Below, piece by piece: positions 16,001-61,576 of a stretch of 64,000 nt of DNA. The stretch comes from Eukaryota sp. GEM-RC1 (Eukaryota). The position numbers were made by a program, and so were the translations under genes. The notes beneath the pieces are model-generated. The model was not told the DNA's origin and ran no database searches. It saw nothing but the letters and a program-made list of their open reading frames with translations. Position 1 is the stretch's first letter; each line of letters starts with the position of its first letter. The stretch covers positions 930,001 through 994,000 of the forward strand of contig JAUFOQ010000003.1 of NCBI GenBank assembly GCA_040285855.1, read 5' to 3'.

Positions 16001-16529
16001 AAGAATTGGAGGAGATTTTGATAGCCATTGATTAACATTTTCAATTTGGTTACGTCCAACTTTTCTGATTCAGCAAGTCCAATTTCTTCAGCAATGTCGG
16101 ACAAGTCCTGAGGAGAAACTCCGAATACTACAGAGGAATAAGTCTCAATGAAGAGACGGTAACATTGGTAGACAAATAGAGGATCAGTAACGAGGGCAAG
16201 ATTCTGAGCAACTTCATCGTTGAAACCAATGTTAAGAACTAGTGTGAGATGAAGATCGAAAAAATGACACACCAATGTGATTACAAGGAGAAGCGGTAGT
16301 ACTCTGATTGACGGCAAGGAATAGAAAGTTTGCAGATGAGTTTAACTGATATCCTGTTGTTGTTTCAAGGTTTTGCAAACGCTTTGACAGTTCATGAGTG
16401 GAATAACATTCATCAACAGTTCGTGGAAGGGGAAAAGAAGAGATCTGGAGTAAACGCGAACGTCATGACATTACATACAGGAAGCTCATAGAAGAATTGT
16501 GGAACCAAAAGGGAAAGTGGCTCATCCAT
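13061..16529 (-). CDS. Type II membrane protein, copy 1: PPDK-derived N-terminal domain, TM, 7+1 carboxypeptidase-regulatory-like beta repeats, BspA-type LRR
   Basis: ATG 16529; introns 16445-16478 and 16239-16272; A3 versus A4 frameshift at ~15657 relative to copy 2. VLNIGFNDEVA..YQCYRLFIETYSSVVFG..IPQDPREQL matches the PPDK N-domain; IPDSLITIGMLAF-type LRR_5 repeats. Confidence 0.8.
13885..15530 (-). repeat. Coding tandem repeat, 7 x 234 bp (78 aa)
   Basis: The unit VVSGTVTxDSVELADVLVSGDDFDDVYSNADGYFELEPLVNGIYELTFELAGYDTKSVNVTV recurs with a 234-bp period. Confidence 0.95.
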
Positions 16530-29997: not shown

Positions 29998-31338
29998 ATG
30001 GCCAAACATGAGTGGCAACACATCTTTGATCAAGACTCCCAGGTAGTTGTACCCGAAAAGGTCTCAACTGCTCATCCTCGCCTTCCCTCTCTCAGTCAGT
30101 CTAGAAAACCACCATCCTTACGTGTAAATCGTATTTCTGCGACGTCCATTACCCGGTCTCTTCAACGTGATGTTGCTCCTACTCTTAATCCTCCAAAACC
30201 TTCTCCTTCTCAAAAGCTCCCATCATCGTCCGTTTCCTCCGAGATCCTACCTTCCCTGCGAAAGCCATCATTAAAGCCACGTATCGGCTTCCAAACCATC
30301 ACTAAACCACGCTTTCAAACCTCTTCAACACAAACACATCTCCTCCACTCCTCTTTCAACTACGTCTGTAAAGAAACAAACAGAGCCCCCTGTCAAATCA
30401 AAAAGATTGAAACCTCTCCTGAAACTGCGGAAACAATCTCCTCTCAATCAAGCAACGTCCCATGTGAATTAATCCAACATCCTAACTTACCTCCACCCCC
30501 TCTGTTTAATCTAACAATCAATCCACCTAAAGCTTCCATAGTTGATCTTCATGACCTGTTGAAAGAAGATGTTGATTATCAGCAGCTGTATAAGGAAGTT
30601 CTTGTTAGTGTAAATGTTTCAACAGATTTCTGGAGCAGTTTACTGTTTGGTATTGTTCCAAAGATATTTGACCGAATTCTTTCTGATTCAGATTGTTTTC
30701 GTGTTGTTGTTTGTTTCTCAGTAAAAGATCCATGTTCTTTGGTTAATTGTTTTAAAACTAACCCACAATTATTTCAAACATCCTTTTTTAAATCTGATCA
30801 GTTGAAGATTGCTTTCGCACAGAATTCTAATTGTTTTGAATTTTTCAAAAATCTAATAGTATTTGGAAAATTTGTCTTTGGTAATTTATTACTCACACTA
30901 AATGACGTTTTTCCAGACAAAAATTCTGAACGAGTTTTCTGTCGTAGATTCTATCAACTCTCCGTCACTCCACACAATTTTCAAATTTCTCAAGAATTAG
31001 AATTTCAATCTCTTGTTCTTTCACTTCTACACTATTTTGTCCGATACTCACCGGAAAACTCTTTATTTGTATGTCTTCATTGCTGTAAGACATTGCTATT
31101 TCATAGCTCATACTGCTATCTATCAAAGCCTCCGTATAATGAGAAGATTTTTCACTGTGGTACAATTTTATTAGAATCTCTTTCGAAGGACTTGCTAACA
31201 AAAGCATTGGAAACATATAGTCTCGATGGAGTTTTGAAATTTTTGGAATTGAATTTTCCACATTTACACAAAAGACTTTTTTCGGCTAGTAAAACAAATT
31301 TAAAAATTGTTCAATCAGTCATATGGTTCTGGCAGTGA
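29998..31338 (+). CDS. Hypothetical protein (S/P-rich N-half, helical C-half)
   Basis: Uninterrupted 446-codon ATG ORF; no family recognised. Confidence 0.65.
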   Translation: MAKHEWQHIFDQDSQVVVPEKVSTAHPRLPSLSQSRKPPSLRVNRISATSITRSLQRDVAPTLNPPKPSPSQKLPSSSVSSEILPSLRKPSLKPRIGFQTITKPRFQTSSTQTHLLHSSFNYVCKETNRAPCQIKKIETSPETAETISSQSSNVPCELIQHPNLPPPPLFNLTINPPKASIVDLHDLLKEDVDYQQLYKEVLVSVNVSTDFWSSLLFGIVPKIFDRILSDSDCFRVVVCFSVKDPCSLVNCFKTNPQLFQTSFFKSDQLKIAFAQNSNCFEFFKNLIVFGKFVFGNLLLTLNDVFPDKNSERVFCRRFYQLSVTPHNFQISQELEFQSLVLSLLHYFVRYSPENSLFVCLHCCKTLLFHSSYCYLSKPPYNEKIFHCGTILLESLSKDLLTKALETYSLDGVLKFLELNFPHLHKRLFSASKTNLKIVQSVIWFWQ

Positions 31339-34300
31339 AATATTAAAATCTGGCGATCCAATGAAATAACAGTCAGCTGAATTTAGAAAACGAATTCTAT
31401 AGAAATCTGGCGAAACAATTGTCGGATCAATTCCTTTCGGATTAATAACATAAGTTCGTTTAAATGCAGATTCCATTTGTTTTTTGGTATTGTACCGTGA
31501 AAAGAAATCAATTAAGCCTATTGTAATTGATTTTGTTGCGTTATTGATAACAACGAACATGGAATAGTCAATAATTGATAATTGTTTAAATAGCAAAGTA
31601 TCTCGAGTAAGAGTTTTTAGAAATTTGTTCTTGTCTTTTACTGAGATTGTCAGTGGGTATGTATGATAGAAATTTAAAAATCTTGGTCCAGTTTCACTGT
31701 AGACTCTGCGGTAGCAGTTCGACGCCATACCGATCCCTTTAAATCAAAAAATTTAAAATAATTGGAATATTCTTCGTAGTTGTGGTGATATCGCAAGTTT
31801 TCCTGTACAATGAAGTATTCAATATTTTCTTCGTCTGGTTTTGATCCTTTTAAAATTTTAGAATGTTTCACATTTTTACAAACTCCAAATATTCCTAAAA
31901 TTGGAACAACAAAAGAGGAATTCAACAACGATAAAGCAAAATGCGTTAAAAATGCAAATGAATTTTCAAAAATGTTTCGGCTTCTCCAGAAGTAATTTGT
32001 TTTAAAATCAAAGTTCCATCAGATGATTTACAAAACTTACTCTTACTTTTTCCTCCTTCATTTTTCATTGAAACAATACTAGAAATTGAATTCATAAAAG
32101 CAGAGTGATAATCTTTACCTAGTTTCAACATTCGAAAAGCTTCGAAATTTCTTCCACAGTAGAAATGCACATCTGCTAACTTTTCTTTTCCAGAAGATAG
32201 GCTCATACAGACGTCAATACATTGGACATCAAGAAATTGTTGGACAGATTCAGATGAATGAGTATTTGAAAAGTAAGCCGTTACGTTGCGACTAACTGTA
32301 TTTTCTTCAAAAATTGGATCTGGTAAATTATTTAAAATTTTCTGATATTCAGGGGACTGTAATGACGTTGCTAAAATCGATAATGAATCACTACAATCGA
32401 CTACATGGTGAGCCCCATCGAAATTCAGAAGCTTTGGGGATTGAAAATTCGATATAACAGCTGGAAAATCATTCAAAACTTCAAAAATTGATGTTCTAGA
32501 TAACGTAAATCCAGAGGGAAAACCACGAAAACTAGCCGTGTCAGTAGGAGAACAACTAATATAACCATCAGTTGATCTACTTTCAAAGACGGACTTCTCA
32601 AGTCCAGGAGATGAAGCTACTGGGATAATAGTAGAAGAGAAATCAAATGAGGTATCACCAGAATGATCGGTGAGTAGAGGATCATCATCAGTTAACAAAT
32701 GGGAATATTGCAGTTTTTTAAGTTTTTCTTTCTTTTCAGTGGTGTAGAATGAAATATTTCCGAAACTGAAGATGTTTTCTTCTTTGCAGTTTTTGGCTTT
32801 AGTATAGTGATTTGATTGAGACTCTCATGTAAAAAACTTTCATCAGTCGATGATGAATGTTTGACCGAACCATTTCCTTATCACCTTGATCTTCTTCTCC
32901 AACTGCATTGTCATCACTTTCAACAGAGAGAGACATTGAAAGAACATCCAGCGTTGAAAAAGAGGATAAATTAAATTTCTAGAGGAATTAAAATTTTCAT
33001 TCCAAGAAAGTGATGATGAAATAATAAGAGAAATGAATGATTGTAGTTGAAGAACTGCTAACGGAGATCGTGAAATCGACTTTAAAAGAGCTTCAAAACG
33101 AGTAGAAATGGTTTTAAAATCAGAGTCAAGGGTTTGAATAAGTGCTGTGGAGGTCGATGAACCAATTAGAAAGTGATTTTCGACAACAAATGACCGCAAT
33201 TTTAGCACAAAATCTCTAACAATATTGAACTTTGATGTCAGAATTGCGTCAACACCCTCAGTTAACTTAATCTTACTAAAATTATTAACTTTTCCTGGTC
33301 CCAATAAAGATTTACGATACAAAATATCTTTCTGTAAATACAACACAATATCAAAATATTTCAATTTGTACCAAGAAACTGTTTGTTCACACTTAGGACA
33401 TTTAAGATGCTGACCGTGAAACAAGAATGCAATCAAATGACAAAAAGAGAAGGAATTACTTAGATCCAACACGTGATGATCTTCATCACATGACGAACAA
33501 GCTCCATACAACTTGAAAGTGGAAGAATCATCGTCACTTTTCGGATGTTTCTCAGCTGAAATAACAAGAATTTGATCACCAAATATCAACACCCCTAAAT
33601 GATCAACTACTGACAAACCATTACACTGACAGCAAGTGCTGAGCTGGCGCCGAGCTCTACTAGCTTCCAAATTGAAAACATCAAATGAATGTGTCGTTGA
33701 TTGATTATAGAAATAAGAAACTTCACACTGTCGAAGATCCTTATGATCTCCATTCATAATACAATCCCGAAACCACTCAAAAACAGAAACATCAAACCGA
33801 GTATAAGGGAATATCATTCGATAATGGAAAGGAACACACAAATTCACTTGCTTATTACCCTCCACAGCAGTGTTAACCACAACTCCCCAGATTACTGGAA
33901 AGGAAACTGAAGAGAAGTAGGAGGGGAGGACTGGTACAAAGGAGGAGACGTCGTAGTGGAGAGGGCGTACTAGGAAGGGGATGTGAGAAGGGGAGAATAG
34001 GAATTTGGGAGGGAGTTCTAGGCCAGGGAGAAAGGGGGAATCATGGAAATCAATCATTTTTGAGTGTTTGATTTGTATTGGAAGGTAATTTAGGCAGGTT
34101 GTCGTGGTTGATTGCTGCGTGTATGAGGAGAATTGAAGGCTCTTTGATTGGCATTGACTCGTGATGAAACGAAACGCGTTGAAGAAGAAGAGATCAAAAT
34201 TGATTGGATACGTTGGGCCCTCAATCAAAAGTGATAAAGAATTGATGGGCAACGATATCAGATTATTTGAAATCTTTGAAAAATACCCCAGTCTAATAAA

Positions 34301-35220
34301 TAAACCATTGAAAACGTGGTGGCTAATGTTGGAGAAGAGAATTGACAAATGTGGTAATGGTGAAATACCATAATAATTTGAAATTCCGGCCAAATGATTA
34401 CAATTTGGTAGTATTTCAAATATATCTTGAAAGACTGATCGAAAAAAGAGATCAATAGTTCCAGAAGCAATGATGATGATTTTGTCAAATTTTAAAAGTG
34501 TTGATTCAAATCTACATTGTAAAATGTTTCTCATTCGATGTCTTAGTTCAGCACAATTATCCTGACAAAAGAAGGAAGATTCAACGAGCAATTCAAAAGA
34601 ATGAATGGAAAAGGACGTGTTCCAACAAAAGAGGAAGAATTACTCAAAAGAAACGTTGATGACGTCAGCAAGACACGTGGACGACGTGATTGGAAGAAAG
34701 AAATTGACGGAAACTTTCCTTTAACGAAATCAGAACTATGTTTCACCAAATGACTAAGTGTAGAACTACATTTAAAGAGTTGACTAACCGCAGTAAGATA
34801 TACAGGAAAACTTTGTCTACAAACAGAAAGAACAGAGTCTACAGCAAGTTCAGGATTGATAATAGAGCTAGGAACAAGCGATGTGTTCACAATGTCATGG
34901 AGAAACACTGACAAATCAGTAATTAAGTGAGCTGGACTTGTGGTGGAATGGGCATCGAAATCAGAGAAGTTGTGAAAGAAGGTAGAGAAGGGTAAGGAAG
35001 TACAGAAAACACAGGCATGTTGATCATTACACTTGCTACACACTATTGCAGTACACAGAAAGCATTGATGTTTACGTTTGAAAGAGTAAAGAGAGGTGTT
35101 GCAAACTCCGCAACTACTGGGTTTGAAATCAAGAGATGAATCACTGGAGATATGTGACCAGTTATCACTGAGAACTGATACTGACAGTTCTGAATTGAAG
35201 ATTTGGGAGATGGTGGGCAT
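31315..35220 (-). CDS. FAB1: FAB1/PIKfyve-like PtdIns3P 5-kinase (split by several frameshifts)
   Basis: FYVE-like CGVC..FKRKHQCFLC..CSKC; kinase motifs GGKSKSKFCKSSDG, LKQI, DLKGS, IIDYSM, GLIDF and PTIVSPDFYRIRF across five ORFs. Confidence 0.85.
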
Positions 35221-35280
35221 CAAAGTGTGACATATCTGAAATCGTCCAGGTTGAATTTGTCCACCTAACAATCCATCCCT

Positions 35281-36256
35281 ATGAATCCATCTAAGCCCAA
35301 ACCCCCAAGGCTACCATCTTTATCCATCAAAAGGATCCCAATACCACACTTGGTGGAGCTACTAAAAAACTTTTGTTCCTTGTGCACCTCCTAGACCTCG
35401 ACCTCCAGAGCAAAAAACTGTGTCTGCTGCTCTTCCTGGACTTCTTAAGTCTATTGAACGTAAAATACAACCAAGAAAGCCCCAATCCCAAAAACGTCCT
35501 CTAAAGCCTAAGAAAATGATTGAAATGGGCGAAACCTTCTTCTCTGCTTCAAAATCATCAGATTCTGTTCCGATATCATTTGCTCCTATAGATGAACTTA
35601 AACCTGAATTTTTATTTGAAAACGCTAAACCAAGACAATTAGTTTTTGAGGAACGTTACCAACCTGCTGAACTTCCTTTTGTTCCAACAGCAGACCCTCT
35701 CCCTCAAGATCCTCAAGATAAGCCTGTATATCATAAGACTCCTGAAGCAGGGGTGACTTTCTCCAGAGCTGCATCAGAGTTTCTAGAAAATGGTAAAGTT
35801 CCTAATGATTTGTTTCTTCTACAACTTCCTGTTTCATTACCGTGTGAATCATCGAGATCAATTCCAGTCAGGAAAGCTCCACCCACAACTCCAATCCAAG
35901 CTAAAAGGAAACAGCAAGCTTCAGAGAAGGAAGTAAATGAAGCGAGAAAGAATGGTGCTAAGAAAATACCGAAACAGTTCGAACCTTTCCCAACAAACCA
36001 TGGTGATTCATATCCTTCTCATTTATCTTCAGCACCTTCAGGAAGACTTGGTAAGCTTGTTATACATAGGAGTGGGAAAATGAGATTAGTGTTTGAAGGG
36101 GGAATTAGCTTTAATCTTTCACAAGGGATACCAGTATCTTTTGATGAGAGAGTTGTGTCTATTTCAGCCAAACAACGGGAAGACGTCCTTGAAAGTTCGA
36201 CCATGGTTGAGTTGGGCAAAGTAGGATGTAGAATGGTTGGTGTTATTGATGTTTAA
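35281..36256 (+). CDS. POLR3D: RNA polymerase III subunit RPC4/C53
   Basis: C-terminal LFLLQLP..GRLGKLVIHRSGKMRL; frameshifted N-terminus RLPSL..TLGGATKKTFVP from ATG 35281. Confidence 0.85.
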
Positions 36257-36441: not shown

Positions 36442-36759
36442 TTAGCATTCCATTGGTGTAGATTCTAGTGCTTGAGAAAAGCGGTCCAGTACAACTGTCG
36501 TCATGTCTTTCAAAGTGGAAAGACCTCCTTGCATAACTTCTAGCGGAGGAACATTGTTTCGAGTTTGAATACGGAAGTTTAAGACAGGTTCAATAGGATG
36601 TGGTATACTGTAAGCGCAAAAGTCAACATCAGGACGCCGTGAGACGACATTTCGAAGAGCGTTTCCTATTGTGTGACTTTCGTCAGTGATTTTGAATGTA
36701 GCACATGAATGGTCTTCAGCATCATAAACAACACGGATTTTATCTAATGGAGACTCCAT
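36442..36759 (-). CDS. POLR1D: RNA polymerase I/III subunit RPAC2/AC19
   Basis: ATFKITDESHTIGNALR..VDFCAYSIPHP..NFRIQT. Confidence 0.9.
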   Translation of the reverse strand: MESPLDKIRVVYDAEDHSCATFKITDESHTIGNALRNVVSRRPDVDFCAYSIPHPIEPVLNFRIQTRNNVPPLEVMQGGLSTLKDMTTVVLDRFSQALESTPMEC

Positions 36760-36813
36760 TTTAGTGATAGTAAGGGAAAAGAAAACAGTTTCAATTTCTG
36801 TCTTAATCCCAAG

Positions 36814-37665
36814 TAGGATTGTAATTTTGAGTCAAGCTGACTCACTGAGCTTTGAGTCAGTCAGCTCGAGGCAGGCTCATTTGACTCATGAGTCGAGTCA
36901 AGCCTGTATCTTTGTCCGTGAGTCAGCTCGAGTCAGGCTCATTTGACTCATGAGTCGAGTCAAGCCTATATCTTTGTCCGTGAGTCAGCTCGAATCAGGC
37001 TCATTTGACTCATGAGTCGAGTCAAGCCTATGTTTCTGTCTGTGAGTCAGCTCTACTCAAGTTTACTCTAATGAATGTAATTTAGTACAATTTAAACGTA
37101 TTCTAGTACAATCACCTGTACATGGAATTAGTAGCAGTTCTCTGTATAAATTCATTGCATGTTGATGTGTGGGATGAGCTGACAGCTTACTTATCAACAG
37201 GCATAGTCGATGCTGCGGTGGATCCACTAGATTGGTGGAAACGCTACCAATCAGATTATACTAGCTCAGCTTGCTCAGCTCGCGACTACTTAAGCATTCG
37301 GCCAAGTTCAGCAGCAATTGAACGTTTGTTCTCTGCTGCAAACCAAATTGTAACAAAGGAAAGGGCTAGACTATCTGCAATACTGCAAGGTGTTTATTGT
37401 GTTTACACTCGTGGTACGGAATAGGTGTATTAAATTCAGATCAGTAGAAAACAGTAGAGATTTGTGTTATGTTATAAAGTACAATAGAAAAGAGCATTCA
37501 AAATGAGTCAGCTCGAGTCAAGCTCGGTTGACTCATGAGTCAAAGTCAAGTCAAAGGTAATCAAAATGAGTCAGCTCGAGTCAAGCTCGGTTGACTCATG
37601 AGTCAAAGTCAAGCTTCAAATTGTAGGCTTGACTCGACTTGACTCGGCTCATTTTAACAACCCTA
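36814..37665 (+). mobile_element. Internally deleted hAT element
   Basis: TIR TAGG(A/G)TTGT; 8-bp TSD ATCCCAAG (36806-36813, 37666-37673); ~62-bp subterminal repeats rich in GAGTC/GACTC; hAT dimerisation remnant DPLDWWK..ARDYLSIRPSSAAIERLFS (37122-37424). Confidence 0.95.
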
Positions 37666-37673
37666 ATCCCAAG

Positions 37674-37800
37674 ACCACCGGATCTTCAACCTGTGAATTT
37701 CTCTTAAGATGAATTCCCCATAACGAATTATGGACATTCATCTACACTCACAGTGCACATGGGCTGTGGCGGTTCTATCCCTTGCGGGTCCGCCACTGTT
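37674..37800 (-). ncRNA. Candidate Fanzor omegaRNA scaffold overlapping the ORF 3' end
   Basis: Minus strand: GUGGCGG-A-CCC-GCAA-GGG-AUAGAA-CCGCCAC, then nested stems CUGUGAGU/AUUCACAG, AGAUGAAU/AUUCAUCU and CCAUAA-UUCG-UUAUGG. Position matches known TnpB/Fanzor omegaRNAs. Confidence 0.7.
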
Positions 37801-40153
37801 TCTGTTATTGAATCTTCATTGTTGTTTGTACTCTTTGCTGCTCTCTTCCGTCTTTCTTCAGCTAACTTGTCAGAGAAACACATTGGTCGATCCTCACCAG
37901 CGAGAGTACACTCAACAATCTTTAGAATATTCAAACAGCTATTGAAGTCTCGATTCCAGAGTTTATGACATTTTTTACAACGCACTAAACCCCAACACTT
38001 GAGTTCATCGGGCTCTTCCTGCCACAACAGCTTATCATCTTCGTCCTTCCAACTAGACCAATTCCTCAGCGCTGATAGACGATTTGCCTTCTTGTCAACT
38101 CTTCGCTTCTTCTTCCGGAAGTTTGGATCCTTGACTTTAAGGAAGGTTTCCGTTTCCCCTTCGTCATCGTTGTTCTCAGAACATTCATGGCACTGAAGAG
38201 ATGTCCTGAATTCGTTAACCAGAAGAACCTGATAGCCAGCTTTTTTGAACAACTTTCTCGATCCTTTCCCCATGGATGGAGGCTTGTATTTCCTATGCCT
38301 TGACTGACTCCAATCACCTATGGCCAACCACGTGTTGGTTGGATCTCCGTAAACTTGACGGAATCGATGGAGCATTTTACGTTCACTTTTTTCCTTGTAT
38401 ACTGATTTCCAATAGCTCCATTTGCGCCATTTAGATTGATGGTACAGAGACTCCATTCTATTTGCATACTTGTAGAATTGTTGGACGTACGCTTTGAATT
38501 TTGAAAAATTTGTTGTTTTGGAAGTAAATTCTGAAAATTCTGTCTGAATCTGTTCAGCTGTCAGTTGTCTTCCCGAAATTTCGTTAAAAGAATAGTTTTT
38601 GAAGGCTTGGTTCTGAAATACATTGTATTTTTTTTGTTTTCCTTCGTGCCTTCGAGTTCCTTGAGTATATCTCATTTTTTGAATTGATTTTTCTTTTGAA
38701 ATGGTCTCTTTTTACTTGATTTTTTGACCTCATTATTCTCTTTTTGGAACTGGGCTTTATGCCTTTTAATTTCTTTCAATCTCTTCTTTTCATATGTTTT
38801 TGAGATTTTTGGGTCAAGTGGGGAGCACAATGCCCAGGATTATCAATTTCTTCCTGGGTTTTTCTTCCAACCAAGTACAGAATATCCCATTGGTTAGGGT
38901 CCCCCACCACGACTTTTTTTATTTTTTAAATCCTCTAATTTTTCAGGATGTAAATCTTCCACATACTCCTCTTTTTCCTCCGGAGACTTGGCAGAGTATG
39001 GTTTGAACAGTAGATCATTTCTGGTCATCATGAGACTGATGGATTCACCATTGGTGGTTATCTGGTGACCAAATGAATACATCTTTTGAAGGTGTTCAAG
39101 TATTTGTGATCAAGATTCAAATACTGGCTCCAAATTTGATTTTTAAATAAATTAATGTTTTCGCTCAGATGTGTTAGATTATAACCTTGAACTTGAGGTT
39201 TAAATAATTTAATCATAGCCATCGTATCCAATCGAAGGTGATCAGGGATTAGGCTGGTGGATTGTGGAAACATACGGTACATCTTTGGTGGAATCTCATT
39301 ACAGGAAGGGTTATTCTCAATCAATTTGTTGAGAACGAAGGCCTCTGGTAAGAGCTCCAAAGGCTTTACCTTTAATTGGTATTTGAGTCCTTTAGAGTCT
39401 GGCTTAAAGCTTTTGACAAATGTAATGAAATTTTGATGTTCATCTGATGGATTTGCCAGATCTCGGTAAAATCAATATTGGATCCTCTGCCTTCTAAAAT
39501 TTCTTTAAGGATATTATTGTACAACTTTTGCAACTGGTCTTTTTCGACTTTTTTAAGTGCATTGTTTTTAATAATTTTTAGTTGTCCATTTAAATTAAAG
39601 AAGAGTTCCCATGTTTTTCCAAATATTCAATAAAATGGGATGAAATATTATTTTGATACATTGTAACAATCTCAGTAGCTGTGTAACTTAATGTACGAGA
39701 CATATCAGAGTACATGACATTGGGAATTTCCATATTCATGGGGAGAAGATGTTGGATATAGAAGCATCCCAATTGAATTTTCAAAGCATTGTGCTTTTTG
39801 CCTGGAGTACTTTGAACAATCTCAGTTACCCATTTAAGTATTTCACTTCCATCAATATTTTCCTCATTTTTAAATCTTTGATGAGCTAATGGAGACAAGT
39901 ATCCAATAGTCCAGAGCAATTGGTGGACACTTTCTTTGGTCCATTCTACCGGATTCAATTCCTGGTTATCAAAAGAGTTCATGCAAAAGCCTTGAAGTAG
40001 CAGCAATGCACGTTGTTTAATTCGGTGATGATTTATAGAAATTTCATTAACCAATAAGTTATTATCACTCCAAACAGATTTTAGGGTTACTTTAACCGTT
40101 TTTTCACCCGGGCATTTCAGCAATTCTTGTGTTTCGACTTGAAGGAAATACAC
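37728..40153 (-). CDS. Fanzor1 (TnpB-family RNA-guided endonuclease), frameshift-split
   Basis: KTVKVTLKSV; IVTMYQNNISSHF; YQLKVKPLELLP; FPQSTSLIPDHLRLDT; YSFGHQITTNGESISL; RuvC-I VVVGDPN (D at 38899-38901); IGDWS..MGKGSRKLFKKAGY; RuvC-II VNEFRTS; zinc finger CHEC..CKKC; RuvC-III WNRDFNSCLNI. Confidence 0.93.
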
Positions 40154-41648
40154 AAAAGGCTTTGTAATTCAACAATATCGTTAAAATGTTCACGTAAACA
40201 TTTCAAGTTTTGTTCAGATGTGAAATCTGTAGAAACTGGTGTGGGAACTGAATAACTTTCATTTTTTAAAATGTTCTTTACAACAGTAACCCAATTCAAA
40301 GATTTTCCAGTTCTAGGTCTGTAATAATTTCTAATAACACGACCCAAATCTATTAGCTGAATTTTTGAGTTTTTGAATTGTTTTAAAAAATATTTGTAAA
40401 AGAGAGGACACTGAATATTTGAACAATTCTCTGATTTTAAATTAAATTCATCCAACGTAGAACTTGCATCATAACCAATTATCAGACCACAGTCAGTTAA
40501 ATCTAAATAATCATTAAACGCACTAATCATAGATTCCTCTTGATTAAACGCTTGAACATTCACTCTAGCATGCTCAGAATTAGGTGACAGAACTGAATCG
40601 CAACTTTGTTGTGTAGTGAATATAATTGATTCTACAATTGAAATTACTTGGTCCTGTACCTGAACTGTTTGAGTGATAATTGATGTGATTATTTTTTTCT
40701 CTTTTTCCTTTTCAGTTTCTTTAGTAGCTGCTGAAGCTTCAATCATTTTTACAAAAATGCACTTAATCGAGTGTTTGTGATCTAACATTAAGGTTACGTT
40801 TTCGAAAGGATCTTTTCTTTTTTTAGACTTAACTGGTGATTCTTTTTCGTTTGTTTTTTCATTTGTTTTTACTGCCAATGGGCATTTTCTTATATCATGA
40901 CCAGTGTTTCTACACTTTGAACATTTACGCCCAATTTGTTTTTTCACCAGTTGGGGTTCGTTTTCATTATTATTGTTTGATCGTTTTTGTTTTCTTGGAG
41001 GCATATTGCTGACAGTGGCAAGCCTTTTTCCTGGATTAACGTGGCTGTCCAGTTTTAAGTTCAATCTGATACGAAATTGAGAGGGATCAAATTGATGATG
41101 CATAATTTCATTTTGAAAATCTGTCATCATTATACAGTGATCAATGTGACCAATTGTTTCAACGTTAAATGTCTTGAATAAAACTTCAATAAAATACAGA
41201 ACAAATATGCCACAATCATAACCATTGTCCTGTTTCACAGAATTAATGTGACAATGGTAAAAGTTGTTTGGGCAAAACGATTGTATAAAATCAATTTTTG
41301 AGGACAACAAATTACTATTAGAGATAGAATCCATGAAGTATAACGTTTCAGTCATGAAATCCATAACACATAGTCCCCAGTGAGTTCCAGCAAATCCGTC
41401 AATAATACCATTGTTCATGAGAATAAGAACAAGCCGACAATCTGCATTTTTTTCTCTTATATCATGATAAATAACGTCTTTCTCTAACGTTAGAAAGTTA
41501 AATAAATGATAAAATCCAATAGCTTGATTGGCGAGTGGGTAATCCAAACTGATATTATTTATGGAAAAAGAAGATGGAATAGCTCTAACCATTCACATTC
41601 AGACAACAATGTTATGTCTTCAAATTCATGTGAGTTAAATGATACCGG
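40117..41648 (-). CDS. Ulp1/SENP-family (C48) cysteine protease domain, CCHC zinc knuckle and linker; probably N-terminal part of the Fanzor polyprotein
   Basis: DITLL..EWL, GTHWGLCVMD, YFMDS, KQDNGYDCGIFVL (H-D-Q-C residues); CSKCRNTGHDIRKC at 40882-40923. Confidence 0.85.
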
Positions 41649-41710
41649 TCCGGGATTCGACTCGATATCACCATCTTTGGTTAAATCTTTAACAAACAAA
41701 TCAATCAAAC
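41646..41710 (-). other. 2A-like ribosomal skipping (StopGo) sequence
   Basis: LIDLFVKDLTKDGDIESNPGP is an exact match to D(V/I)ExNPG|P; core at 41646-41669. Confidence 0.85.
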
Positions 41711-41894
41711 AAAGTTTGAAATTGTGTTTATTCTCCAAATCAAAAGTGAATTGCTTTTGTCGAGTTTTACAACAAGACACGGACCACTGCGGTATTAACT
41801 CATCAGGAGTTGCAGATATCAAGCTATAAGCCTCTTCTCTGCAACTGCCCTGAGTTGTTAATCCTGGGTTAGGGCCGTAGTCCCCACCCAAATT

Positions 41895-42082
41895 CATAAC
41901 TGAAAAGACGGAACTTTCAGTCTCAACTGGATACAAAACATCCAGCCGAGGAGGATTGGAACCTCTTATTGTGTGAGGAGGGTCGGAACCTCCTGAACAC
42001 ATAACTGAAAGGACGGAACTTTCAGTCTCAACTGGATACAAAACATCCAGCCGAGGAGAATTGGAACCTCTTATTGTGTGAG
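41895..42082 (-). repeat. Two 83-bp direct repeats (105-bp period) built of hairpins
   Basis: 41895-41977 and 42000-42082 differ at two positions; stems CUCGGCUGGAUG/UAUCCAGUUGAG, CUGAAAG/YUUUCAG and GAGG/YCUC. Confidence 0.9.
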
Positions 42083-42231
42083 ACATCAACAAACCTGATG
42101 GAGTCATGAGACGGAAATAAGTCACTGTCGACATTGTTATTGATTGTTCATCACTTTCCTCTCAGCAGGATTCCGTTCATAAGGGATTTTGATTTTGCCA
42201 ACAGTTTTCTTTTCACTTTTTTCTGCTACTG

Positions 42232-42660
42232 ATGCAGCTTTCTCAGGTATCAGCGTCTTGCTAGTCCTAACACGCTTTGATTGACTTACTTTCTTTCTTG
42301 AAGGTGTTCGCTATATCTGCACTGACTGGTGCTACAAGTCTTATTGCTGTCTTCTATGCTGCTGTTAGATTTAAGGAATACGAGCTTCTTCTCATTCTGG
42401 CTTTTGGAATTCTTTCCCCATTTGCTGAACTTGTCTGCAAGGACGACAATAGCTTCGACTCTTCTTCAGGTCTAGAAATCATGGGTAAGTTCCTTACTGC
42501 TGCGTTGTGTAGAAGTGGTTTATGTCTTCCTATAATGCTATTCCACAGTGACATAATAGCCACCATCCCTTTAACTATTGCTTTAAGCGGCGCTATGCTT
42601 TTCTACTCCTCGGTATTCATTTTTGTTGAGAAAGTTGCTCCTGACAACGACTCCTTTTAG
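42232..42660 (+). CDS. Vps55/LEPROT-family small membrane protein
   Basis: ATG 42232; intron 42247-42303 (GTATCA..CTAAC..AAG); four TMs; GKFLTAALCRSGLCLPIMLFHSDII. Confidence 0.78.
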
Positions 42661-43137: not shown

Positions 43138-44524
43138 ATGCTACACCATTACGAAGTTCTTGGTGTAATCGGTGAAGGTACGCTTACGTTTCCTTTTGAT
43201 CAGTCCTTTTCACTGGTCCTCTTTTTCTCGAACATAGACTCATTGCAGGGGCCTATGGTGTTGTTCTCAGATGTAGAAACAAAGAAACAAATCAGACTGT
43301 AGCCATTAAGAAATTCAAAAACACTGATGACGATGAAGCTACCAGAAAGACAACTATTCGTGAAATACGAATGCTCCGTCTTCTTAAACACCACAACATT
43401 GTCACTCTTATTGAAGCCTTCCGCCGCAAAGGTCGTCTTTATCTTGTTTTCAACTACGCTGAACGTAATATGCTCGAAGTTCTCGAAGCCCAGAAAGGTG
43501 GTCTCCCACTCAATAGAGTTCGATGGTTCATCTTCCAACTTCTCCAGGCTCTTTCATTTACACATCACCACGGAATTCTTCACCGTGATATCAAACTTGA
43601 GGTAATGCCCATATTATTTAGTTTCTAATAGTAGAATCTTTTAGTTACCAATGACGACACATTAATGCTCTGTGATTTTGGCTTTGCCAGAACTTACAAC
43701 CATAGAGATAGTCAGCTTACAGAATACGTGGCTACCCGATGGTATCGTTCACCATCACTTCTTTTGGGGTTACCGTATACTTCATCTGTTGATATTTGGG
43801 CTACTGGTTGTGTTTTGAGTGAATTGGCAACTGGTGAGCCCTTATTCGCAGGTGATTGTGATGTAGATCAATTAAATTTGATTCTATCATCAGTTGGACC
43901 TCTTCCTGCTTACCTCAGGGATTCATATGTACGCCAGCCTAGATTTCGTCGACAAGAGGACAACAGGAGGCGGAGACATGCATCGAAGAACGACTTTTTC
44001 AAGAGGCTGATTCCATATCTCTCTCCTGCTGGGGTAGATCTACTACAACGAATGATTGAGCTTGATGAGAGAAAGACAATTACAGCTGAAGAAGCGCTGA
44101 AGCATCCTTTTTTGATGGTCTTCATGAACAGTTTAATAAAATAGTAGCAACAAGTAGGGGAGAAGAGTCATTGACGAGTAGAGAATGTCACTCGCGACGG
44201 AAAACCAATGATTTGCGATTAAAGACACCGTTTAATGGTCTTGAAATGACTGAAAGCTCGCCCAATGTACTCAATGGATTAGGTCAGCGATCAATGTCTG
44301 GTCCAAAGCTCACATTGCCGGCAGTTGGTCACGATCTCTCACTTAATAGTACACAGGGTAAGCGTTTTCAGTCACAGTTCAAGCCTGCTTCAAAGAATCC
44401 ACTACCACAACCGAACTTTAACATGGATCTTCCGCTGAGCAACTTGTTTGGTCGAACAACACCGATACCTCAGATTAGTCAACACTCGAATATTTCAAGG
44501 CCTTTGCACATGACTTATTTATAG
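43138..44524 (+). CDS. CDKL-family (CDKL5-like) Ser/Thr kinase
   Basis: Splicing introns 43178-43248 and 43602-43634 restores GEGAYG, VAIKKFK, EAFRRKGRLYLVF, HRDIKLENLL, DFG and TEYVATRWYR; probable frameshift in the T run at ~44110. Confidence 0.9.
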
Positions 44525-45307: not shown

Positions 45308-47795
45308 ATGGACCAATCAAGTATTGCTCACTTCCTCTATGAGCTGCGAGTTTGTAACATCATGACGCTCTCTCTTACTTCAGAATCCTCCAGTCCCTCT
45401 TTCTCAAACCCCAGACCAGCGTAAGCCCAGTGACGATCTGAACAAACTGGTTCAAATCCTTGAAACAACAACAGGACAACAGTTAGGCCCATCGGAGAAC
45501 TTTCTATTCCTTACCGTCAACCAGAGTACTATCACTTCTACATGTAATCACATTGGTATGTCATTTTTCGATCTTCATCTCACACTAGTACTGAACATTG
45601 GTTTCAACGATGAAGTTGCCCAAAAGCTGGCCCTCGTTACTGATCCTCTATATGTCTACCAATGTTACTGTCTCTTCATTGAGACTTATTCCTTCGTAGT
45701 ATTCGGAGTTTCTCCTCAGGACTTGTCCGATGTTGCTGAAGAAATTGGACTTGCTGGATCAGAAAAGTTGGACGTAACAAAATTGAAAATGTTAATCAAT
45801 GGCTATCAAAACCTCCTCCAATTCTTGAACCATGTCATTCCTCAAGATCCTAGAGAACAACTATCACTCTATGTACAGAAAGTCTCTGAAAAGCTTCCAA
45901 CTGACCCCATTCAATTGAAAGTTCAATGTCTTCTCATCAATGATATCCACCAACGAGCTCTCACGATTGAGCCTTCCACTAAATCCTTTGTTACTTGTGA
46001 ACATGGGTTTGACCAAAATGATGCTCTCGTTCAATCAATTCATGGTACTACTTCTGATGGTCAGAAACTAGATAGAATCACCAAAGATTTAAATGCAAAG
46101 GCTGAATCTAGTGAAGATGTTGTATTGTTTCTTAATGCTGATGCAATAGAATATCGTTCTTCGCCTTTTGCTCAGTTCAAGAAGACGTTTAAGGGTAAAC
46201 GAGATACTGGTATAGCTGCTGCTGCCACGTGCCTTATTCTGGTTATCTTGGGTGTACTGCTATTCCTACTCTTACGTTCATCCACTTCAAAGACTTTCCT
46301 TGTGTTTGGAACAGTCACTGGTGATTCAGTTGCTCTTCCAGGTGTTCTTGTCTCTGGTGATGGTTTAGATGACGTATACACTACTGAGGATGGCTTTTTT
46401 AGACTTCAGCCACTTGCCAATGGTGACTACGAATTATCCTTCGAACTCGTAGGTTATGTTCTTAAGTCAGTCAGTGTTACAGTGTCTGACAATGATAAGA
46501 CTGTTGATGTTTCTCTTTCCTTACATACCTTTGTTGTATCTGGAACAATCACTAGTGATTCCGTTGAACTTGCTGACGTTCTTGTCTCTGGTGATGGTTT
46601 TGATGACGTCTACTCTAATGCTGAAGGCTACTTTGAGCTTGAGCCACTTATTAATGGAATTTATGAACTCACTTTCGAACTTGCGGGCTACGACTCAAAG
46701 TCTGTCAATGTTACAGTGTCTGGCAGTGACGAGTCGATTGATGTTTCTCTTGATCTGCCTTCACTTCAACTTTATATATACGACGATCTCACTTCTGAAC
46801 CAATTCCCAATCCTAGTGTTAAGCTCAATCAAGATTTGATTGTTGATGGAGATGAGGACGGTTACGTCATCATTGCTGATTTAATTCCTGGTGATTATGA
46901 GCTCATTTTGATGCATTCTGATTATTATAATCGAACTCTTCATGTAGAAGTACAATTTTCCAAGATTCAATCTTTGTCATTGACTCGTCATGGATTTACT
47001 ATTGTTGGTGCCACTATTACCGCTTATGATGCTTCTGTAGGTATATCAGTATCTATTCCGGCATATGTCAATGGAGTTGAGATTACTGGAATTGGACCTT
47101 ATGCTTTCGCTTTTAAGAACTTAATTGCTGTTTCTTTTGCAGACAATATTTATTCTATCGGAATGTTTGCTTTTGCAGGCAACAACATTGACAGTCTTCA
47201 TTTTGGAAATGGATTAACAATCATTGGTCAAGATGCTTTCTCTACTAACTATGAACTAACAACAGTGGTTTTTGGTAATTCTCTCACTACTATTGGTTCT
47301 AATGCATTTACTTACACTTCTATCTCATCCATTGTCATACCAGACAGTGTCACGACCATCCATTTTACTGCTTTTTATTACAGTAACCTATCTTCTGTGA
47401 TTCTATCTGAGTCTCTTACTGAAATTAGTAAGGGGGTGTTTATAGGTAACGAATTAACAAGTATCACCATACCATCTTCAGTTACCAAAATAGGTGATTC
47501 AGCATTTCAAAATAATAAGTTGTCGTCAGTTGAATTTGGAAATTCTGTACAATTGATTGATGTTCAAGCTTTTTATCACAACTTGTTAGAGTCGCTGAAG
47601 TTTCCGGACAGCTTGGAACGAATTAATTCGGAGGCTTTTGCAAATAATCCACTGTTATCTGTTGAGATTGGTGATGACGTGACATCACTGGATGATTCAG
47701 CTATACCAGGAAATTTTAAATCTGAATATATTCAGACAGGGGCTGGCGTTTACTCTAGATCAAGTACCTCAGACGACTTTGCTTTTGAGGATTGA
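45308..47795 (+). CDS. PPDK-like/TM/repeat/LRR family, copy 3 (2+1 repeats, longer LRR)
   Basis: ATG 45308; introns 45350-45383 and 45556-45588; same domain order as copies 1 and 2. Confidence 0.82.
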
Positions 47796-47884
47796 TGTTT
47801 CTTTTCCCGTTCAGTATACATAATTCTTGTTTTCTTACTGAAGATTCAACCCTTTCCTCACTGGTTATTAGAATTTACATTCTA

Positions 47885-48360
47885 TTTCATCCGTTGTCAT
47901 TCCAAATGATGTGACCTCTATTGGTTCAAGAGCTTTCAGAAACAATGGATTGACATCAGTCATTCTGTCTGAATCTCTTGTTGACATTGAGAATTACCTG
48001 TTTCATGGGAATTTGTTGACTAGCATTGTCATTCCATCATCTGTTACTATGATAGGAGAAGATGCGTTTCGGTGGAGTTATTTGACTTCTATTGAATTTG
48101 GTAATTCTGTGCAATCCATACACACACGTGCATTTTATCAGAATGTCAATTTAGAATCGGTCAAGTTTACAGACAGCCTACAACACCTCTTTGATGAAGT
48201 CTTCACCTTGTGTCCCCTGTTAACAGTTGAGATTTCTGATGATGTTACAGTTGAACCAACTTCCATTGCAGGTCTATTCAAGCATGTATATGATGCAAAC
48301 CAAGGTGGGATTTACACTAGAGCAAGTACTTCTAACAACTTTGTGATTCAACAGGACTAG
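47885..48360 (+). pseudogene. Orphan BspA-type LRR C-terminal cassette
   Basis: Paralogous to the last ~155 aa of copy 3 (SVILSESL..IPSSVTMIGEDAF..GGIYTRASTS); no ATG, TM or stalk. Confidence 0.7.
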
Positions 48361-50399: not shown

Positions 50400-50960
50400 A
50401 AAATCTTACAACAGCTTTCTCCTCATAAGGAACTCACTGCTAATTAAGCTTTGGAGATGATGAGGGGAATTGTTTTAAAAACCGACTACACAATAGCATT
50501 CAACCATAACATATGATCAAAACGCTTGTCCATCTTATGTTTTACGAATCTGCCGAAATCGCTTGAAAAACTCAATGAAAAACTTTTTCCTAAGCGGTCA
50601 TAGATTAAAACATAAAAACGGCATAATTCGTATTCAACATGTTTTACATGTTTTAAAGACATCAATGGTTTTTTGTACTTATCCTGATTGGCTTGTTCAG
50701 AAATGTCTAAAGGGGAAGTTTCAGAGTAAGCATTCTTTAAAGATGTTTTTTTACAAACATCCACTGACACTACATCGACAACAAACAATTTGTCTGAAGA
50801 AGAAGGGACAATAACATCTGCTCTACGTTTACCCAAAAATTGTTTCTGTCTTTCTTCATAAGAATTAATTGGTTTTAAAGATCTTAGAAGTGGTTCAACA
50901 AATGATTCAAATTTATATGACTTACACATAGTATGGATTTGGTCTCTTAAAGTGTTTTGA
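50400..50960 (-). mobile_element. 3' fragment of an RLE-type non-LTR retrotransposon
   Basis: MCKSYKFESFVEP..RRADVIVP..VVDVVSVDVC..DKY; same architecture as the 8 kb fragment. Confidence 0.75.
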
Positions 50961-51360
50961 ACAAAATATATTAGTTTATTTGCAATATTATATTATTACA
51001 TACTGTTCTAATTCAAAAATGAAGTAAGTTAAATTCTCCATATCCACATGAGAATTTTCCCTATACATGTATGTTAGTACTTAATTGATAAAAAATGCTC
51101 TACATCTACTCTTGAACAACGATACAATTTGTCCAGTATACGATTCAAATACTGTCGATAACTTCTATTTAACGAAACTACAAATAGAGAATACATTAAA
51201 TAAGTTGTTGTCATATACAACAAAGATATCATACTTTTTAAAACAGTAAATTACACTCTGTTTACTTGTTAGTAACATTATGATCATTGTGATTACACCT
51301 ATACAGACACATCAAACAAAAACCTTCCCTTTATAGACAATATACATCTAAACTCTTTCA

Positions 51361-53208
51361 TCAATCTGTCATAATCCCACCTCCAAAAGGATACTCACCA
51401 TACTCAGGCCCCCATCTAAAGTCCTTCTTAGGATCAGTACCTTCAACAATCAACAAAGAATGCTCCAACACCTCCATTGCCTTGTTATTCATAAAGGGAG
51501 GTCTGGGAGCAAGTACTAGGTTTGATACCCCCGCACTGACCATTGCAAGTACTGCTGATAGGCATTGCTCTGAATGGTATAGACATAATGTCTTAATGAT
51601 AGAACTGTCGCTTATATCAGTTCCAAGAGACTTCGCAATTGAGGCAAGCGCACGAATACTAGAATCAATCGAGCTGTAATCACCACCATCAATGATCTTT
51701 GGCAACTTTCCTATAAAACGATCTCTAAACATCGTCAACAATGGCAATCTAACCGGGCCTAATGCTAATACGTACCAAGAAGACGGCAACGAGTCTATTA
51801 ACAAAGACAGATACTCACTTTCAGGTCCTGAAGAAGCAGCTTCACCAAAAACAAACAGAATATGAGAATCTGTATTAACAATGGTATTGATGAGTTCTGG
51901 TAGAATTCCACTTATAGAGATAACAGAAACCAATGACGAAACACGAGGCTTCAACAAGTTAGTTTCAGTCCTCACGGTAGGGGATGGGCTCATATGAGGG
52001 GTATAGTGTTTAGCAGCAAGCACCATTGGTTCCAGATCGATGAACCCTGTTGACGTCAGCAGGGGTCGATTAGCTCCTGGACAACTCGTCTCGTTGACAC
52101 AGTAGAGTGGAGGGTGTTCAATGAGAGGAAGGTTAGGTGGGGTGGGAGAAGAGGTGGTGACGACGACTCCACATACTGTAGTTAAGAGAGGAAGTACACG
52201 TGAATCACCCAGGTTAGCAAGTAAATGGCCCTTGAGAGCAGCGTATTGTCTAAAGTAACGATGACGATGTACTGACAGCAACTCCCCTGCAGTCACAACA
52301 TCAAGGTCGTTCTGATCAGCAAGTTTTAACACAGTATGAAGATCAGAGAAGTCATTCCCTCCAACCACAATAGTGTTTCTCCTGAGTACTACAGTTGGAT
52401 CAATCAGGGGAACGTGGAAAACTACCTGGTCTTTGTGGGTAACTGCATCAATAGCTGTGGAACCAAACCGACGATCAATTGTTTCTTCAAGACTAGCAAA
52501 TGCTCTTCGAAGTGCAGCACTTGTTTGATGTAACAAACGGATCATGTGAGATTCCTTCTCAGTAGCTAAGGCTTGAGGTAAGTCACTGAGGACACGTAGG
52601 TTAGCGTGGATGCTGTGAGTGGCGGCTGAAGAGTTACCAAGACGCATTAATCTTAGGGCTGTTGAAGCAAGGTAACGGTTAGAGAACAAGAGAAGATCGT
52701 AGAGAGGACCAATGGCTCCTTTGTTCATCACGTAGGTTGCTGGTTTAACAGATTTTCCAGTAGCCACAGCAGTTGTCATTGAGGAGACGTCTGGATCCCA
52801 ATTCATGTTAATGTATTGAGTGTTGGCGGAGAAAGGAATTCCTCTGGTATAGTGAGCATTTTTAACAGAATCGAACACGGTTTTGAGAGCAGCAAGATGA
52901 TCGAAGGCAAAGGAAGGATCAAAGGAGGCATCGGTGAGTTGAATGGCTTGACAGTTGAGAAAGGGTATGGCAAAACTATCAGAGATGAATGAATCTTCCC
53001 TTAAGAATTGGATGAGAAGAACAGATGTTGAAAGAATACCAACTTCTAGTGAATCAAAGAGTGCTTGTAGGTTGGAATCTTTACCACAAGTGCCAATGGA
53101 ATCGCAGCAAGCTCTACCAACCTGTAGTTGACGGGCGCGACTACATTGATGGCAGAACATTTGAAGATTAGGATTCTCACGATATAACACTTCAATATCG
53201 GTGCTCAT
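51361..53208 (-). CDS. Divergent hybrid cluster protein (HCP/prismane) homologue
   Basis: MFCHQC..CCDSIGTCGK N-terminal Fe-S motif; colinear degenerate motifs IVVGGND, VVTAGELL, LPKIIDGG and HSEQ..AVLAMVSAGVSNLVLAP. Confidence 0.8.
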   Translation of the reverse strand: MSTDIEVLYRENPNLQMFCHQCSRARQLQVGRACCDSIGTCGKDSNLQALFDSLEVGILSTSVLLIQFLREDSFISDSFAIPFLNCQAIQLTDASFDPSFAFDHLAALKTVFDSVKNAHYTRGIPFSANTQYINMNWDPDVSSMTTAVATGKSVKPATYVMNKGAIGPLYDLLLFSNRYLASTALRLMRLGNSSAATHSIHANLRVLSDLPQALATEKESHMIRLLHQTSAALRRAFASLEETIDRRFGSTAIDAVTHKDQVVFHVPLIDPTVVLRRNTIVVGGNDFSDLHTVLKLADQNDLDVVTAGELLSVHRHRYFRQYAALKGHLLANLGDSRVLPLLTTVCGVVVTTSSPTPPNLPLIEHPPLYCVNETSCPGANRPLLTSTGFIDLEPMVLAAKHYTPHMSPSPTVRTETNLLKPRVSSLVSVISISGILPELINTIVNTDSHILFVFGEAASSGPESEYLSLLIDSLPSSWYVLALGPVRLPLLTMFRDRFIGKLPKIIDGGDYSSIDSSIRALASIAKSLGTDISDSSIIKTLCLYHSEQCLSAVLAMVSAGVSNLVLAPRPPFMNNKAMEVLEHSLLIVEGTDPKKDFRWGPEYGEYPFGGGIMTD

Positions 53209-61498: not shown

Positions 61499-61576
61499 GA
61501 GCTGAGATTAAGAATGTGGAATTTTGATTTCGATTCTTTTGTTGTTTTGTGCTGTCCAAGCTAAAATGACATTTAG

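Follow-up and report, generated by a model that had tools for sequence, protein, structure and literature searches.

A Fanzor1 element whose long, interrupted frame likely encodes a protease-nuclease fusion protein behind a 2A site

Fanzors are RNA-guided nucleases of eukaryotic mobile elements that have been studied as compact stand-alone editors, and the reason why the elements keep them is debated. Fanzor1 has been captured by many DNA transposons and is described as a single protein with a variable N-terminal half (PMC3627910, PMC10530073, PMC10711439, PMC10432273, PMC10691335; all available in part). Elements with a Fanzor and no transposase are also known, namely Spu-1 (PMC10432273, in part) and SfAV (PMC10711439, in part). 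Here we describe a Fanzor1 element in a 64,000-nt stretch of DNA from Eukaryota sp. GEM-RC1 (assembly GCA_040285855.1, contig JAUFOQ010000003.1, positions 930,001 to 994,000), referred to below as the window. We estimate a probability of about 0.62 that this is a young, repeated element whose long frame likely encodes one protein of ~1300 residues, consisting of a protease, a zinc knuckle, a probably inactive exonuclease and a Fanzor behind a 2A site, and that it acts by the mechanism proposed below.

Fusion of a protease to the DNA-cutting enzyme of a mobile element has precedents. Ginger1, Mutator (Ulp1/OTU) and Helitron OTU proteins combine the two, and a role of the protease in steering repair has been proposed for them likewise (PMC2836005). 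In those proteins the protease is joined to a DDE transposase or to RepHel and, in Ginger1, stands at the C terminus; in the element described here it stands at the N terminus and is joined to an RNA-guided nuclease, and the pieces scanned showed no transposase. NeSL and Utopia elements (PMC4640811), together with 2A-bearing open reading frames (ORFs) of non-LTR (non-long-terminal-repeat) elements, some of which have Josephin or OTU domains (10.64898/2026.06.17.732966, in part), share with this locus an N-terminal Ulp1 or deubiquitinase domain, a zinc finger and, early in a long ORF, a 2A. Unlike them, the element described here is without reverse transcriptase (RT), APE and RLE (restriction-like endonuclease) domains, and has a Fanzor in their place. 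The closest relatives of that Fanzor are SpuFz1, PpFz1, GtFz1 and giant-virus or metagenome Fanzor1s, which it resembles in full-length homology, in the RuvC D-E-D residues and in having the E before the C4 finger. Those proteins were found stand-alone, whereas this element has an N-terminal protease, a knuckle, an exonuclease-like domain and a 2A, and no terminal inverted repeat (TIR) was found. By word search, the main texts of the five surveys of captured Fanzor1s cited above contain no protease or exonuclease fusion, and the available portions of PMC6338049, PMC12846837, PMC12338488 and 10.64898/2026.06.03.729735 contain nothing on such a fusion. Our literature searches found no description of a Fanzor-protease fusion, although supplementary tables, Repbase or subscription journals could hold one. 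The individual parts are known, and so is the attachment of proteases of this kind to enzymes of mobile elements; what appears to be new is that an RNA-guided nuclease is the partner.

Domain architecture

From the ATG at 42134 to the stop codon at 37728, the minus strand reads as nine frame pieces separated by eight breaks; a preliminary description made from the sequence alone had counted seven pieces. The pieces encode, in order, a leader with a 105-nt repeat, a 2A, a C48 protease, a CCHC knuckle, ~200 residues and a Fanzor1:

41562..42134, minus strand: leader ORF with ATG at 42134 or 42107, ending in the 2A and the first ~27 protease residues
41865..42096, minus strand: hairpin-rich 105-nt tandem repeat
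41646..41669, minus strand: 2A/StopGo core D-I-E-S-N-P-G-P, found once in the window and in 0 of 100 shuffles
41150..41648, minus strand: SENP8/NEDP1-like Ulp1 (C48) protease, split by break 1
41591 (W), 41382 (H), 41331 (D), 41232 (Q) and 41214 (C), minus strand: protease residues
40882..40923, minus strand: CCHC zinc knuckle with basic stretches on either side
40160..40770, minus strand: degenerate PolB-type (DnaQ-like) 3'-5' exonuclease-like domain
37728..40102, minus strand: complete Fanzor1 in seven frame pieces, by homology to 12 stand-alone Fanzor1s
38901-38899 (D), 38213-38211 (E) and 37949-37947 (D), minus strand: RuvC codons
38192 (CHEC) and 37979 (CKKC), minus strand: C4 zinc finger

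All features that had been named earlier (the 2A, Ulp1 H-D-Q-C, the CCHC knuckle and the RuvC D-E-D of Fanzor1) were found on the minus strand. The order first proposed, 2A-Ulp1-knuckle-Fanzor, stands but is incomplete; it lacked the exonuclease-like domain, and the 105-nt leader repeat and a hAT miniature inverted-repeat transposable element (MITE) 55 nt after the Fanzor stop codon had also been missed. About 1306 codons follow the 2A, in agreement with the earlier estimate of ~1300 residues. The protease, knuckle and exonuclease-like domain, which share one open frame of 491 codons in the window copy, place ~515 residues before the Fanzor part and behind the 2A. A Pfam scan of eight element pieces detected no transposase family (DDE included) and no RT, RLE or endonuclease domain, in line with the earlier statement that neither transposase nor RT is recognisable; the ORF is otherwise accounted for. 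We consider the architecture of protease, knuckle, exonuclease-like domain and Fanzor behind a 2A to be highly probable.

The Fanzor part, with its pieces joined by X, scored 327.6 + 53.0 bits over positions 13-640 of a profile made from the 12 stand-alone Fanzor1s. Homology starts at 40102, equivalent to residue 8-17 in 4 of these 12 proteins, and covers the full length, including the N-terminal half. These 12 were the long homologues found, all of them stand-alone (631-710 aa; 31-37% identity). The top PDB sequence matches were SpuFz1 and PpFz1, and the top Foldseek match was SpuFz1 (E=6.9e-4). The motif given for Fanzor1, D-X(125,275)-[TS]-[TS]-X-X-[C4 finger]-X(5,50)-RD (PMC3627910, in part), is present throughout: D at 38901, TS at 38204 (~232 codons on, over two breaks), CHEC at 38192, CKKC at 37979, five residues, and RD at 37949.

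Pfam Peptidase_C48 matched the protease with E=2.7e-8 (34.3 bits; cut-off 20.7), and the protease has the His-Asp-Cys triad and the oxyanion Gln. Across 27 sequences H71, D88 and Q121 are invariant and C127 is nearly so. The top Foldseek match was the NEDD8 protease NEDP1 (E=3.7e-6), the PDB sequence matches were Ulp1 and SENP8, and in PDB sequence and fold comparisons Ulp1, NopD and XopD scored about equal to NEDP1. The protease shares the G-T-H-W and Q-x-N-x-x-D-C-G motifs of SENP8/NEDP1 (DEN1) and has the corresponding N-terminal motif right after the 2A, but with W-L-E-L instead of W-L-N-D and with 27-43% identity to the representatives found. We predict that it is a protease of the NEDD8/SUMO type. 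Its N-terminal motif lies in the upstream frame, five residues past the 2A, where it ranked first among 53,873 16-mers in the window, so the whole protease requires that break 1 be crossed. With one base added at break 1 the W-to-H spacing is 70, and it is 61-80 in 35 of 45 homologues. Between the protease and the Fanzor no Gly-Gly site occurs, and the protease is therefore expected to remain attached. A search of representative proteins with the protease ORF returned 47 matches, none close, and no Fanzor domain occurs in the 17 that were Pfam-scanned; none of 6573 candidates was a longer relative of the ORF (861-2455 aa). Six proteins of 507-825 aa (P0027, P0036, P0041, P0042, P0058 and P0066) fuse a SENP8-like protease to SGNH/GDSL, FLYWCH or MBD and look like ORF1 proteins of long interspersed nuclear elements (LINEs), a label that we assign ourselves.

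The 2A core agrees with the published definition D(V/I)ExNPGP (10.64898/2026.09.24.754024, in part), stands in an open frame and is intact in 6/6 copies of the leader ORF (162-226 aa). It is likely, from its sequence, to be a ribosome-skipping site; 14 of 17 class A 2A peptides were active in one survey (PMC12338488, in part). The number of repeat units in the leader varies from 1 to 3 across the six copies and the frame is always kept. That leader length varies with repeat number suggests what the 2A might be for: skipping would give the protease a constant N-terminus behind a variable leader. The repeat is predicted to fold into a hairpin array (z = -4.0; 0/100 shuffles as good). A second, degenerate 2A-like motif, D-Y-G-P-N-P-G-L, occurs at 41862-41885 on the minus strand, 72 codons before the canonical one.

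The zinc knuckle matched Pfam zf-CCHC with E=0.012, below the cut-off, and the basic stretches beside it may act like nuclear localization signals. The domain that follows resembles the DEDDy exonuclease of family B DNA polymerases in the order and spacing of ExoI-III and in its predicted fold, and differs from it in that the catalytic residues are replaced and no polymerase domain is present. Pfam DNA_pol_B_exo1 gave E=8e-4 (19.3 bits against a cut-off of 23). ESM Atlas gave a feature score of 0.86 and a template-modelling (TM) score of 0.66-0.69 over ~125 residues, on a low-confidence model; with the whole GEMRC1_004436 protein the top score was 0.82, a lead only. Our own profile of 11 PolB domains ranked the protease ORF first of 240 (E=6.5e-4), with weak controls (1 of 300 shuffles, 8.8 versus 9.6 bits; hhalign, 1.9%). 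A global alignment with 10 PolB domains brought the ExoI, ExoII and ExoIII regions into register, in order and spacing, and showed replacements of Asp in ExoI, of both Asn and Asp in ExoII and of Tyr in ExoIII. ExoI reads M-I-E, ExoII reads G-Y-D without an aligned Asp and ExoIII reads E-x3-D, in place of intact D-x-E, N-x3-(F/Y)-D and Y-x3-D. AlphaFold2 models had pLDDT <50 over most of this part, and fold searches without a match there are uninformative either way; PHROGs, PDB sequence and phage tblastn searches with it gave nothing useful. We consider a PolB-type exonuclease fold likely for this stretch and, judging from the replaced residues, the domain is probably inactive.

Continuity of the frame

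The eight breaks are as follows:

41565..41569, minus strand: break 1, T5 run that lacks one base for the leader and protease frames to join
40154..40157, minus strand: break 2, T4 run at the junction of protease ORF and Fanzor, read through in GEMRC1_004436 and GEMRC1_011651
39614-39618, minus strand: break 3, A run, read through in two copies
39452-39454, minus strand: break 4, A run, read through in two copies
39084-39087, minus strand: break 5, A run, common to GEMRC1_004436
38914-38920, minus strand: break 6, A run, best read as one extra base
about 38800, minus strand: break 7, A run
38675-38680, minus strand: break 8, A run

The run proposed earlier for the first junction, as A5, exists one base from where it had been placed (41565-41569 rather than 41564-41568). 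Other copies were compared as protein records rather than as DNA, and all of them come from one source organism, Eukaryota sp. GEM-RC1. By the locus tags of these records, about 12 loci spread over 5 contigs carry pieces of the family, and copies differ at 1-7/111, 4-9/123 and 4-8/214 residues. The Skoliomonas sp. GEMRC assembly, which bears here on the named record copies only, was built from R9.4 nanopore reads with Albacore calls followed by Illumina correction, and is 48% repetitive (PMC11316075, in part).

Two copies carry the frame across the junction between protease ORF and Fanzor. GEMRC1_004436 (P0079) aligned to the X-joined window translation over 491/491 residues, 468 of them identical, and GEMRC1_011651 (P0081), which begins at residue 283 of the protease ORF, over 509/509, with 486 identical; neither alignment has a gap, and both span breaks 2-4. 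Both proteins start in the later half of the protease ORF and continue unbroken over the 40155 junction and breaks 3 and 4, with the exonuclease-like domain and the N-terminal half of the Fanzor in one open frame. These gapless alignments indicate that exactly one base is missing at each of breaks 2, 3 and 4, without an intron, and the peptide ELQSLFVYFLQ, which had been proposed as a repair near 40155, is read directly in both copies. The window protease ORF overlaps the read-through copies by ~200 residues, which links the protease to the Fanzor. At a second locus, GEMRC1_012052 (a 2A ORF) and GEMRC1_012050 (a Fanzor fragment) lie on one contig, two tags apart; together with the read-through copies, this neighbourhood speaks against chance adjacency. 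It had been considered earlier that other Fanzor copies might never adjoin the protease, and the same two results weigh against this. Searches of viral and metagenome contigs, by a method that finds close relatives only, gave no related loci. We conclude that a single frame from the protease ORF into the Fanzor is supported. The claim of one fused frame thus stands at the 40155 junction, but not at the break between 2A and protease, which is read through in 0/6 copies, nor at the last four Fanzor breaks, for which no read-through copy was seen.

Introns were considered at both main junctions. At break 2, 14 frame-restoring GT/GC-AG pairs exist and are excluded, because GEMRC1_004436 and GEMRC1_011651 keep every residue. 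At break 1 an intron is disfavoured, since of nine frame-restoring pairs seven remove the Trp motif and two need a GC donor; none of these candidates ends at a branch-point-like sequence resembling the host intron seen. The latter, a 33-nt GT-AG intron candidate in a gene for a CDKL-like kinase (43602-43634, plus strand), has a branch-like CTAAT motif near its 3' end.

All eight breaks lie at homopolymers, and none of the nine pieces contains an in-frame stop. On the best reading, seven breaks each lack one base and the one near 38914-38920 has one base extra. The same kind of break, at an A4 run (31963-31966), divides a host PIP5K/Fab1-like gene, and the retrotransposon at the left edge of the window is interrupted in like manner. 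The preliminary description had spoken of the same error type in housekeeping genes, and the PIP5K/Fab1-like gene is the one case that could be tied to a Pfam domain. We reasoned that most breaks are probably homopolymer sequencing errors, because all are at homopolymers, as is the break in the host gene. For break 1, a shared calling error is the simplest reading. In a 123-residue Fanzor fragment available from five copies, the window differs from the read-through GEMRC1_011651 at 4 residues and from two broken copies at 6 and 8, and 0/3 informative sites group the broken copies. The PIP5K/Fab1-like gene itself extends over 31315-35310 on the minus strand in several frame pieces, and the A4 break splits its kinase domain.

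Several observations weigh against the view that the element encodes one active fusion protein. Break 1 is present in 6/6 copies, break 5 is common to GEMRC1_004436, breaks 6-8 were seen read through in no copy, and no single record runs from protease to RuvC. The protease ORF has many longer A runs (A6-A7) that are intact, an outcome that a simple error model does not predict. The N-terminal Trp motif sits across break 1 from the His frame, and a local profile of 35 SENP8-like proteins scored 85.5 bits with or without the upstream piece, with no extension across the break. The exonuclease assignment is below every curated cut-off, and the RuvC-I context is V-G-D-P-N, where homologues have A/G-I-D-P. 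A Fanzor neighbour could be tied to only one of five other 2A-ORF copies. The hAT MITE lies inside the likely omega-RNA region, and for the Fanzor element itself a search of this one copy showed neither a transposase nor a TIR, nor any target duplication or poly(A) tail.

Alternative readings

Break 1 might be real, a programmed -1 frameshift that together with the 2A keeps nuclease output low. All six copies stop at the same place, whereas breaks 2-3 are read through in 2/5 copies. In retrotransposons, 2A-like peptides often reduce protein output (10.64898/2026.06.17.732966, in part). However, breaks 3 and 5 are also cases in which copies share an error at one homopolymer, and similarity clustering may hide longer copies that read through. 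The site, moreover, is not a canonical slippery heptamer, for which the consensus is X-XXY-YYZ. We regard a programmed frameshift as unlikely, though it is the alternative that survives best.

A second alternative accepts the architecture as ancestral and takes the breaks for real mutations, in which case this copy, and perhaps every copy, is dead. Eight breaks in 4.4 kb contrast with intact host ORFs of 598-872 codons, and the hAT insertion at the 3' end, the odd RuvC-I context and the degenerate exonuclease motifs could all be signs of decay. Yet there is no substitution stop in the nine pieces and all breaks are at homopolymers; nor do the breaks follow descent among the five copies, and across the family copies differ at only 2-7% of residues. 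We judge decay improbable as an explanation of the breaks.

Equally improbable, in our view, is that the front half derives from a non-LTR ORF and that the element is an RNA passenger of a host LINE reverse transcriptase rather than a DNA transposon. Tandem repeats at the 5' end are a feature of non-LTR elements. At 1-1681 the window contains a non-LTR element whose knuckle is similar, and several relatives of the protease look like LINE ORF1 proteins with Ulp1 and SGNH, LINE again being our label. Non-LTR elements also feature a 2A and a Ulp1 at the N terminus and a zinc knuckle (PMC4640811; 10.64898/2026.06.17.732966, in part), and Fanzor1c associates with LINEs (PMC10530073, in part). Against this, the element has no RT, endonuclease or poly(A) tail, and no DNA similarity to the neighbouring retroelement.

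The protease might instead cut the polyprotein itself, like viral proteases of clan CE, and so set the Fanzor free. Its fold is that of clan CE, which includes adenain, I7L and pS273R, but its nearest matches are NEDP1/SENP8, Ulp1, NopD and XopD rather than viral maturation proteases. The absence of a Gly-Gly between protease and Fanzor weakens the self-processing suggested in the preliminary description, and we consider it very unlikely. Least probable of all, to the point of being negligible, is the chance adjacency of an unrelated protease ORF and a separate Fanzor gene that starts after its stop at an ATG of its own (40115), for although this ATG is a plausible Fanzor start if one base is extra, and 12/12 long homologues are stand-alone, two copies read the fused frame without a gap, which led us to reject such a start, and the same gene order recurs at a second locus.

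Proposed mechanism, element ends and surroundings

We propose the following for the fusion protein of protease, knuckle, exonuclease-like domain and Fanzor. The leader would be translated first, and skipping at the 2A would free a constant protease N-terminus from the repeat-variable leader, after which the ~1300-residue protein would be made. The protease would stay attached to the Fanzor. Guided by an omega RNA from the right end of the element, the Fanzor would cut the empty site, and the element would be restored or spread by gene conversion, a role reviewed for OMEGA nucleases (PMC13565253, in part). Movement would depend on a partner in trans, as proposed for Spu-1 (PMC10432273, in part), here presumably a transposase. 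The tethered protease could strip host proteins at the cut, or cullin ligases, of NEDD8 or SUMO, and thereby favour repair by copying or shield the protein from degradation, while the knuckle and the dead exonuclease may bind nucleic acid. We put the chances of this combination of empty-site cutting, gene conversion with a transposase in trans, and tethered NEDD8/SUMO removal at about even.

A bolder proposal, which we advance tentatively and hold to be somewhat less probable, is that the element is an active, recently spreading RNA-guided nuclease that carries its own deNEDDylase/deSUMOylase and a dead proofreading exonuclease, in effect a programmable device for protease delivery that would alter the host's ubiquitin-like signalling where it cuts and whose output is set by 2A skipping and perhaps by frameshifting. 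If so, it would be the first Fanzor in nature to combine several enzymes, and could spread while lacking its own transposase. An N-terminal fusion of ~515 residues made by nature would indicate how mobile elements of eukaryotes may fit an OMEGA nuclease to chromatin and to the repair systems of the host, and would offer editor design a fusion point already tried by evolution. It also bears on an old question, the repeated appearance of Ulp1/OTU proteases in Ginger, Mutator, Helitron and NeSL elements. Because the cut here would be programmable, the effect of the protease on repair outcome could be measured by one Cys-to-Ala change.

Two features occupy the 3' end of the element:

37666..37760, minus strand: candidate omega-RNA scaffold, a predicted long stem-loop over the stop codon
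36814..37665, no strand assigned: hAT MITE of 852 bp whose TIRs are imperfect, between the two copies of an 8-bp target duplication (36806-36813 and 37666-37673)

Fanzor omega RNAs are located at the 3' end of the element (PMC10432273, in part). The candidate stem-loop had z = -3.0 (101 nt, with the hAT removed in silico, against a rough shuffle control); the part after the stop codon alone had z = -0.9, and 37660-37900 had z = -2.2. No Rfam match reached gathering score over 36500-42500, the leader repeat included (five matches were sub-threshold). The hAT MITE contains a dimerisation-domain remnant (Dimer_Tnp_hAT, E=1.7e-12) and internal 62-63-nt subterminal repeats, and is a separate insertion, 55 nt past the Fanzor stop. 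It may cut the scaffold of this copy or supply its guide; on a speculative view, if the scaffold ends just before the hAT MITE, the guide would be hAT end sequence. Helitron2 elements with a Fanzor have terminal hairpins and short asymmetric TIRs (PMC3627910, in part). Here hairpins are predicted near both putative ends, and no asymmetric TIR was found in this one copy.

Two divergent host genes flank the element, which is on the minus strand:

ATG at 42232, plus strand: Vps55 host gene
ATG at 36759, minus strand: Rpb11/AC19-like host gene

A 19-nt upstream motif is common to both genes, in inverted orientation (36772-36790 and 42200-42218), and is probably a promoter element. The only match in the search for TIRs and target duplications of the element was this motif, and it was rejected as a candidate.

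Elsewhere in the window, the non-LTR element at 1-1681 is the 5' part of a retrotransposon on the minus strand (RVT_1, E=2.2e-8); its N terminus has a CCHC-like knuckle, and the element is interrupted at two T runs. An ORF of 168 codons at 50486-50992 on the minus strand has no Pfam match and resembles the restriction-like endonuclease end of a non-LTR element. At 56085-57446 on the plus strand, a hAT transposase fragment is directly followed by an ORF with a CCHC knuckle that we label Gag-like. Predicted surface proteins at 13061-16341 and 18120-20030 (minus strand) and 45366-48360 (plus strand) combine carboxypeptidase-regulatory-like repeats with BspA leucine-rich repeats, as judged from one Pfam-scanned member; one member of the family is broken by one base relative to its paralogues, and the N-terminal part of these proteins presumably resembles a piece of pyruvate phosphate dikinase. 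A Prismane/hybrid-cluster-protein-like gene is present in two copies that are 97% identical, at 51361-53241 on the minus strand (E=4.6e-15) and at 61572-62675.

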